From the sequence record PZ534514.1: a DNA stretch of 51,676 nt; one strand, 5' to 3'. Positions 6,507 to 6,809 of the stretch are shown here, one piece after another. Position 1 is the first letter of the stretch. The number at the start of each line of letters is the position of its first letter. The translations under genes and the position numbers were made by a program. This DNA comes from a phage. The notes under the pieces were generated by a model. It was not told where the DNA came from. It searched no databases and saw only the letters and a program-made list of their open reading frames with translations.

Positions 6507-6550
6507 AATAGCACTTTTTGCTAAACGCCCACCGCAAGATCGTGTATAGT
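6507..6550 (+). promoter_or_regulatory. Promoter-like element, conserved motif family
   Basis: aatagcactttttgctaaac, then 21-22 bp, then tatagt; ATG at 6582. Confidence 0.55.
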
Positions 6551-6581
6551 TGCAACCAACAACAACTAAGGAGACACCAAC

Positions 6582-6809
6582 ATGAAAAAGTTAATCGCCG
6601 TTTTGATTGCAGCCGTAACCCTGACTGGGTGCGCAAATATGCCTAAACGTGAATGCACGGCTATTTATGAAAATAGCGGAATGCAGTATTCAGTTGCTAT
6701 TTTTGGAGTAAAACGAGTTGGCGAACGCACTCTTGTTAAGGCTGGCTATCCGTTTAATTTTCAGTGGGTAAGCATTGATAACTTTAAAAACGCTGATTGC
6801 AGTCTGTAA
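6582..6809 (+). CDS. Small lipoprotein; Cor-like superinfection-exclusion candidate
   Basis: Signal peptide with lipobox LTGC, 75 aa, RBS aaggag, beside the tail-fibre genes. Confidence 0.75.
   Translation: MKKLIAVLIAAVTLTGCANMPKRECTAIYENSGMQYSVAIFGVKRVGERTLVKAGYPFNFQWVSIDNFKNADCSL

Follow-up and report, generated by a model that had tools for sequence, protein, structure and literature searches.

A cor gene beside the receptor-recognition genes of a T1-like phage encodes a putative FhuA-directed superinfection exclusion lipoprotein

Cor proteins inactivate the functions of the outer-membrane receptor FhuA and are proposed to act like Llp, the receptor-blocking lipoprotein of phage T5, with which they share a common fold and a disulphide at about 20% sequence identity (PMC9586334; bioRxiv 10.64898/2026.03.26.714494). 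Llp is the sole member of the Cor/Llp superfamily with a solved mechanism; it binds FhuA from the periplasm, and the surface loops EL7 and EL8 fold inward so that the phage receptor-binding protein (RBP) cannot bind (PMC9586334). For Cor, an AlphaFold3 model docks a Tunavirus protein on the periplasmic face of FhuA with an interface predicted template-modelling score (ipTM) of 0.84, and within the BASEL collection the gene cassette that includes cor goes together with FhuA usage (PMC13164509). Here, these systems are compared with a gene for a 75-amino-acid (aa) prolipoprotein in the phage sequence record PZ534514.1, which was analysed over its whole length of 51,676 nucleotides (nt; hereafter the window, whose numbering is used for all coordinates). 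Judged by its sequence, the gene is cor itself, a full member of the family and not merely Cor-like, and its product is very probably a functional, FhuA-directed exclusion lipoprotein of a virulent T1-like phage.

The family assignment is carried by profile searches. With a score of 70.5 bits (cut-off 31; E 9e-20), residues 1-73 match NF047972, an NCBIfam equivalog named 'phage exclusion lipoprotein Cor', and the hidden Markov model (HMM) of PHROG 1119 ('Cor superinfection exclusion protein') matches residues 1-74 of 75 (E 9.4e-29). Because signal peptides by themselves give weak matches to the Cor profile, the mature residues 18-75 were searched alone, with the signal peptide removed, and matched PHROG 1119 at E 1.7e-17; a control protein, the unimolecular spanin of the window, matches the same profile at E 3.9e-5 and through its N-terminus only. 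HMM E-values between 1e-17 and 1e-28 indicate that the open reading frame (ORF) is a real gene and not a chance one. A Pfam search of the protein returned nothing Cor-specific, only the generic LPAM_1 signal at 19.6 bits, just below its cut-off of 20, and Pfam seems to be without a Cor family.

A tblastn search of 50,697 phage records with the protein found matches in 440 of them. In particular, it is 100% identical to an annotated 'super-infection exclusion protein' (Sie) of phage aaroes, 56-57% identical to T1 Cor (E 6e-24), 37% identical to phi80 Cor (E 1e-10), and weakly similar (about 35% identity, E 3e-4) to the 'receptor-blocking proteins' that are annotated in T5-like Salmonella phages; the RefSeq ortholog in phage Henu8 bears the name 'Cor superinfection exclusion protein'. 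Searched exhaustively with HMMER, 1.84 billion cluster representatives yielded 17 clusters, and the family is therefore small and restricted to phages. Two long repeat proteins among these clusters (P0053 and P0057), which match the AGxPF stretch, are apparently spurious.

The precursor begins with MKKLIAVLIAAVTLTG, followed by C17-A18, and has a charged n-region (MKK), a hydrophobic core (LIAVLIAAVT) and a classical lipobox (LTG-C17), which is the layout of a type II signal peptide. The +2 residue of the mature protein is Ala18 and not Asp, leaving it without the inner-membrane retention signal, and sorting to the outer membrane is predicted. The mature domain of 59 aa carries Cys25, Cys73 and the motif AGYPF (A54-G55-Y56-P57-F58). 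In an alignment of the window, T1 and phi80 proteins, the lipobox, both cysteines and AGYPF are invariant, and C25, C73 and AGYPF are likewise kept in six close homologues.

The gene order also identifies the locus. J, the PHROG 557 gene, the PHROG 425 gene and cor follow one another in the window, in T1 and in phi80, and the cassette of J, gp22, gp23 and cor is that of T1, N15, phi80 and HK022, which both PMC13164509 and the BASEL paper connect with FhuA. Moreover, the J, PHROG 557, PHROG 425 and Cor proteins share 99, 98, 98 and 97% identity with their counterparts in JLBYU41, a Hanrivervirus with an experimentally determined dependence on FhuA through loops L5 and L8, plus lipopolysaccharide (PMC10373560). 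Such a near match (97-99% identity) of the recognition module to an FhuA-dependent phage gives strong grounds to expect that the window phage uses FhuA. The cor gene is separated from the convergent minus-strand tail genes by a terminator hairpin with an RNA folding energy of -13.9 kcal/mol (z -2.9; Table 1). The initial annotation of the window, made from the letters alone, had described a 75-aa lipoprotein with an LTGC lipobox on the opposite strand to adjacent tail genes and had proposed it as a Cor-like superinfection exclusion candidate; the description is confirmed, and the proposal is supported by the family HMMs, the identity to T1 and phi80 Cor, the conserved residues and the synteny. 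Its term 'tail-fibre genes' is loose as a name for the PHROG 425 and 557 genes.

Among these two small neighbours, the PHROG 425 protein is 98% identical to its JLBYU41 counterpart, 56% to that of T1 and 61% to that of phi80, while the corresponding values for the PHROG 557 protein are 98, 60 and 71%. As parts of the FhuA-associated cassette, both are candidate RBPs carried on J or candidate accessories of exclusion. The pair is more similar to its phi80 counterparts (61% and 71%) than is Cor (36%) or J (42%), and it is therefore suggested to travel as a unit with its own history; both proteins start with MAEYG.

The closest match in organization is T1, whose Cor (AAP49969, 'lysogenic conversion protein Cor') also has 75 aa, is 56% identical and shares LTGC, Cys25, Cys73 and AGYPF. 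In both virulent Drexlerviridae, cor lies after J and the PHROG 557 and 425 genes, converges on the tail operon, from which a hairpin terminator (annotated in T1) separates it, and has exoVIII on its other side. The two phages differ in subfamily (Tunavirinae for T1, Tempevirinae for the window) and in the region upstream of cor, as described below. The Cor proteins of phi80, N15, HK022 and mEp167 belong to the same family (NF047972, PHROG 1119) and to the same J-gp22-gp23-cor cassette linked to FhuA. In these temperate phages, however, cor lies on the strand of J and is a prophage-expressed lysogenic-conversion 'moron', whereas the window gene lies opposite to J in a virulent phage and is presumably expressed early in the lytic cycle. 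T5 Llp is likewise a small outer-membrane lipoprotein whose gene adjoins the receptor-recognition genes, and it targets FhuA, the presumed target of the window Cor; in contrast, the T5 RBP pb5 is unrelated to J and the PHROG 557 and 425 proteins, and the sequence similarity of Llp to Cor is not significant. Rtp45 of phage Rtp resembles the window system in its described role: it confers superinfection exclusion in a small siphophage related to Drexlerviridae and acts on the phage's own terminal receptor, but it targets LptDE (the receptor being LptD) by steric clash.

The predicted structure is consistent with a relationship to Llp. An AlphaFold2 model of Cor was built from an alignment of seven sequences, which is shallow because the word-indexed homologue search gave just six close relatives. 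The model is a small all-beta domain with a mean predicted local distance difference test (pLDDT) score of 76.7, rising to 83-90 over residues 21-70. In a Foldseek comparison with 350,542 PDB chains, the first rank went to T5 Llp in the FhuA-Llp crystal structure (8a60_B; probability 1.00, template-modelling scores 0.49/0.58, root mean square deviation 2.6 Å over 54 columns, E 0.085), with 18% identity in the structural alignment. The best matches in BFVD were a Sie protein (E 1.3e-7), T5-like receptor-blocking proteins and phage lipoproteins, and a phmmer alignment places Cys25 of Cor opposite an Llp cysteine. By sequence, the protein belongs to the Cor and not to the Llp family. No pb5-type RBP gene adjoins cor, its neighbours being the PHROG 425 and 557 genes and the gene for a lambda-J-like tip protein.

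The upstream region of cor carries a copy of a repeat that is characteristic of its relatives. T1-like phages (TLS, T1 and Rtp) contain a 21-nt direct repeat with the consensus aaATAGCACnnnTTGnTAAAA, whose candidate roles are a stoperator, an enhancer site or an UP element (PMC11447400). The window contains 15 copies of the corresponding 20-nt motif ATAGCACTTTTTGTTAAAAC at three or fewer mismatches, against 0.01 expected from shuffles, and T1 contains 19. Copies of the repeat are recognized by a consensus match that is oriented with transcription and lies about 76 nt 5' of a start codon; the copy at cor fits the published degenerate consensus in that orientation, with the ATG 74 nt downstream. 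A -10-like hexamer (TATAAT, CATAAT, TATATT, TATAGT and others) follows the motif start by 38 or 39 nt in 13-14 of the 15 copies (38 nt at cor), and a Shine-Dalgarno (SD) sequence and an ATG follow 72-98 nt downstream in 13 of them (74 nt at cor). Further, the window, Henu8 and Warwickvirus FritzSarasin share the motif, GATCGTGTATAGTT, the SD sequence and the first seven codons but differ in the spacer. Most of the motif copies head operons of small genes, in both directions, in the early region (29-50 kb), and cor is thus suggested to switch on with the early genes. An early switch-on is expected of an exclusion function in a virulent phage. It is a reasonable inference from these elements that the motif serves as the promoter for cor. 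What the initial annotation had called a motif-family promoter is a real motif copy (6507/6508-6527), followed by the -10-like hexamer and the SD sequence, with presumed promoter activity.

The T1 gene appears to be driven differently. Upstream of T1 cor (record positions 29851-30000) the direct repeat is absent, and the region contains a canonical-looking TTGCAA-17-TACAAT together with several TGTTACAC repeats, so that cor is wired for transcription differently in Tunavirus and Hanrivervirus. Within the window motif, TTGCTA (6518-6523) was discounted as a -35 candidate because 21 nt separate it from the -10-like hexamer (22 nt in the majority of the other copies). A generic sigma-70 scan made no call at 6545-6550 because TTGCTA is too distant for a -35 element.

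In the proposed mechanism, host RNA polymerase would produce, soon after infection, a monocistronic cor mRNA of about 280 nt that starts about 7 nt past the TATAGT hexamer and ends at the terminator hairpin. Sec would export the 75-aa precursor, and the host Lgt/LspA/Lnt pathway would attach lipid to Cys17 and cut behind Gly16. The mature all-beta domain, probably with a disulphide bond between Cys25 and Cys73, would engage FhuA from the periplasmic side and, by analogy with T5 Llp, would lock it in a conformation with surface loops that the tail tip cannot use. The infected cell would thereby become refractory to FhuA-dependent phages (the window phage itself, T1, phi80 and T5), and the progeny would be spared loss on FhuA in cell debris. 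On this analogy, an Llp-like mode of action for the window Cor is reasonably probable.

Several points weigh against this interpretation. The mechanism of Cor 'has not yet been elucidated' (bioRxiv 10.64898/2026.03.26.714494), and direct binding of Cor to FhuA is biochemically undemonstrated for any Cor. The role of this protein, as of every Hanrivervirus Cor, is inferred rather than experimental, and the use of FhuA by the window phage is deduced from its 97-99% identical relative. The Cor model, with its pLDDT of 76.7 and seven-sequence alignment, is of only moderate confidence, and the fold match to Llp is weak (E 0.085), with Tudor- and chromo-like small beta barrels scoring nearly equally. 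The Llp homology that the initial annotation had also raised was not borne out at the sequence level: a phmmer search of PDB sequences ranked Llp (8a60_B) first without reaching significance (E 0.18, 15 bits), and the match to Pfam PF24052 is confined to the signal peptide (E 0.07). In addition, the region upstream of cor is not a canonical sigma-70 promoter, given the 21-nt distance from TTGCTA to the hexamer, and the literature weighs several roles for the direct repeat (PMC11447400).

Some of these points would fit the main mechanistic rival, a Cor that excludes FhuA-dependent phages indirectly, either through OmpA or porins or by disturbing the coupling of FhuA to TonB. The title of a 2018 study by Arguijo-Hernandez et al. 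(cited in PMC13164509) points to interactions with other outer-membrane proteins; T1 and phi80 need TonB and T5 does not (PMC10373560), so that the blocked step may differ; the mechanism is described as not elucidated; and Cor resembles Llp weakly, whether compared by sequence or by structure. Nevertheless, Llp is the top fold match in the PDB, the Tunavirus Cor is docked on the periplasmic face of FhuA in the AlphaFold3 model, and the cysteine pair corresponding to the Llp disulphide is kept, which makes an indirect route unlikely, although it retains an appreciable share of the probability. Much less credible is that a protein of Cor ancestry has switched from FhuA to blocking another receptor, as is thought for Cor-like lipoproteins in those T5-like and Tempevirinae phages that use BtuB. 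The KanT1 paper reports Cor-like proteins in BtuB-using phages (PMC13164509), the family matches reach the receptor-blocking proteins of T5-like Salmonella phages, and Warwickvirus FritzSarasin encodes a divergent Cor-like lipoprotein of 89 aa (PHROG 1119, E 1e-7); against this, the near-identity to FhuA-dependent JLBYU41 extends over the whole recognition module, and the closest relatives among model phages are Cor of T1 and Cor of phi80, two phages that use FhuA.

The likeness to Cor might also have come from the signal peptide only, in which case the gene would encode a spanin-type lysis protein or an unrelated small lipoprotein. The control spanin illustrates that signal peptides alone do match the Cor profile weakly, but the search with the mature domain refutes this explanation; moreover, the true spanin lies elsewhere in the window (Table 1), and the synteny is that of cor in T1 and phi80, so that the probability left to it is negligible. 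The preferred interpretation is, then, a Cor that acts on FhuA itself. The value of the locus as a discovery is low, as the gene is already known: it is annotated in RefSeq records of near-identical phages, in a known place and a known genus, and published work already connects the cor cassette with FhuA. Its value for annotation is that it predicts FhuA use by the window phage. Infected cells are predicted to resist phages of the T1, T5 and phi80 types, which is relevant to the design of phage cocktails. Further, as a well-behaved Cor from a virulent phage, the protein would be a suitable subject for structural work on a Cor-FhuA complex.

Table 1. Coordinates of the cor locus, its neighbours and related elements in the window (PZ534514.1).
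Feature	Position	Strand	Description
Direct-repeat copy ATAGCACTTTTTGCTAAACG	6508-6527	+	3 mismatches to window consensus ATAGCACTTTTTGTTAAAAC; presumed upstream promoter element
-10-like hexamer TATAGT	6545-6550	+	predicted transcription start about 6557
Shine-Dalgarno AAGGAG	6568-6573	+	8 nt 5' of ATG; read from the sequence, kept across aligned phages
cor ORF	6582-6809	+	75-aa prolipoprotein; ATG at 6582
Signal peptide of cor product	6582-6629	+	codons 1-16; cleavage after Gly16 predicted
Lipidated Cys17 codon	6630-6632	+	lipobox LTG-C17
Bidirectional intrinsic terminator	6818-6837		8-bp GC-rich stem, GCAA loop, T-runs on both strands
PHROG 425 protein, 213 aa	6840-7481	-	E 5.6e-69; homologue of N15 gp23 / phi80 gp23 / T1 ORF31
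PHROG 557 protein, 101 aa	7483-7788	-	E 9.9e-30; homologue of N15 gp22 / phi80 gp22 / T1 ORF32
J-like central tail-tip / host-specificity protein, 1192 aa	7832-11410	-	lambda-J-like; Henu8 copy annotated tail protein
DUF4884 lipoprotein, 86 aa	34925-35185	-	LTG-C18; last gene of leftward early operon; 24 kb from J
Unimolecular spanin, T1-type, 132 aa, MRKLSAIAIAVILSGC	42855-43253	-	PHROG 1804 E 8.9e-50; absent from the lipoproteins of the initial annotation
Motif copies	6508, 17329, 21089, 36311, 37449, 37946, 39996, 40672	+	3 or fewer mismatches
Motif copies	29622, 33485, 34465, 34928, 45807, 46827, 49351	-	3 or fewer mismatches

A regular-expression scan of all ORFs in the window identified three lipobox proteins, namely Cor, the spanin and the 86-aa DUF4884 lipoprotein, the last of which had been put forward as another Cor- or Llp-like exclusion candidate. 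This second proposal is not supported. The 86-aa product belongs with PHROG 6360 (function unknown; E 7.8e-12) and DUF4884 (E 2.4e-5, below the cut-off), a domain present in 38 of 38 of its database homologues, and it has no match to the PHROG 1119 and NCBIfam Cor profiles. A BLASTP comparison with Cor aligns only the 16-residue signal peptide. The corresponding DNA (6591-6637 on the plus strand and 35127-35173 on the minus strand) is 77% identical over 47 nt, a similarity that arises because the signal peptides are alike (12 of 16 residues identical); the mature parts are unrelated, and paralogy of the two lipoproteins was rejected. A fold search with its AlphaFold2 model, which is of low confidence (pLDDT 66.6), gave no meaningful PDB match, with Llp outside the top 50. 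Its homologues occur in Rtp and in Warwickvirus, Pseudomonas, Xanthomonas, Serratia and Erwinia phages, and the Warwickvirus phages are not FhuA-dependent (PMC10373560). Neither its location nor the spread of its homologues ties it to receptor-recognition genes or to one receptor. The gene has no upstream motif copy of its own; the copy that lies over its stop codon serves the next gene. With its Cor-type signal peptide and its spread over phages of differing receptors and hosts, the DUF4884 lipoprotein may be a second, receptor-independent factor directed at the envelope, for example in another type of exclusion or in outer-membrane remodelling.

The upstream region of cor heads a different lipoprotein in a sister genus, Warwickvirus. 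In FritzSarasin (MZ501069.1, 7940-9218), the motif, the -10-like hexamer, the SD sequence and the MKKLIAV codons precede the divergent 89-aa Cor-like lipoprotein mentioned above; the PHROG 557 and 425 genes lie downstream on the same strand, so that the pair is inverted relative to the window, and the small proteins start with MAQYG. Because the same upstream region heads a divergent lipoprotein there, it could be a conserved slot for early expression (motif, -10, SD and seven signal codons) into which receptor-matched mature lipoprotein domains are swapped between genera, with the DUF4884 lipoprotein as the receptor-independent envelope factor; this broader scheme is regarded as rather doubtful.

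Other features of the motif family were observed across the window. Between the motif and the hexamer or, in T1, on the flanks of the hexamer, there are often inverted repeats that are rich in GC and vary in sequence among the copies; for example, GCCCGAC..GTCGGGC occurs at 45788-45770, CCAGG..CCTGG at 34905-34889, and GGGGTA..TACCCC around TATAGT in T1. No mention of such variable hairpins was found in the paper describing the direct repeat (PMC11447400). The motif copy at 17329 (plus strand, region 17329-17413) has a good -10-like TATCAT and lies inside a minus-strand block of structural genes, where it reaches a bidirectional terminator (17387-17413) within about 20 nt; either its transcript would be very short or the copy would work as an antisense or insulating element.

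The gap of about 425 nt between the divergent exoVIII and cor genes (6082-6507) is without a convincing ORF, while the T1 counterpart has an annotated 46-aa ORF. Its GC content falls to 24-25% at 6300-6450, its AT skew changes abruptly from -0.34 to +0.47 near 6250, and TA-rich runs come after a CA-rich stretch (cacacataaccactgacacatgcataatcacag...). For exoVIII, a sigma-70-like TTGACT-16-TACAAT is present on the minus strand at 6138-6111.

On sequence grounds, the window phage, a virulent T1-like siphophage, falls in Hanrivervirus (Drexlerviridae, Tempevirinae). Over bases 1-25000 it shares 96-97% identity with Fulano1, grams, JLBYU09/41, aaroes, vojen and egaa, and the 600 bases surrounding cor are 94-97.5% identical to the same phages. 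About 18-20 GenBank records named as Campylobacter jejuni phages (MG065636, MG065637, MG065640 and others; 'A16a/A15b/A14b') are also 94-97% identical over the cor region and 25 kb, and their host labels are probably wrong or due to contaminants. An Rfam scan of the entire window returned zero RNA families. Recurring units with a spacing of 105 nt (family D1, 61-84% identity) occupy both ends of the window (1-223 and 51344-51671), with exact 26-nt copies at 36, 51484 and 51589, which suggests either that a tail-fibre gene with 35-aa repeats is split over the window ends or that the assembly is terminally redundant or permuted.

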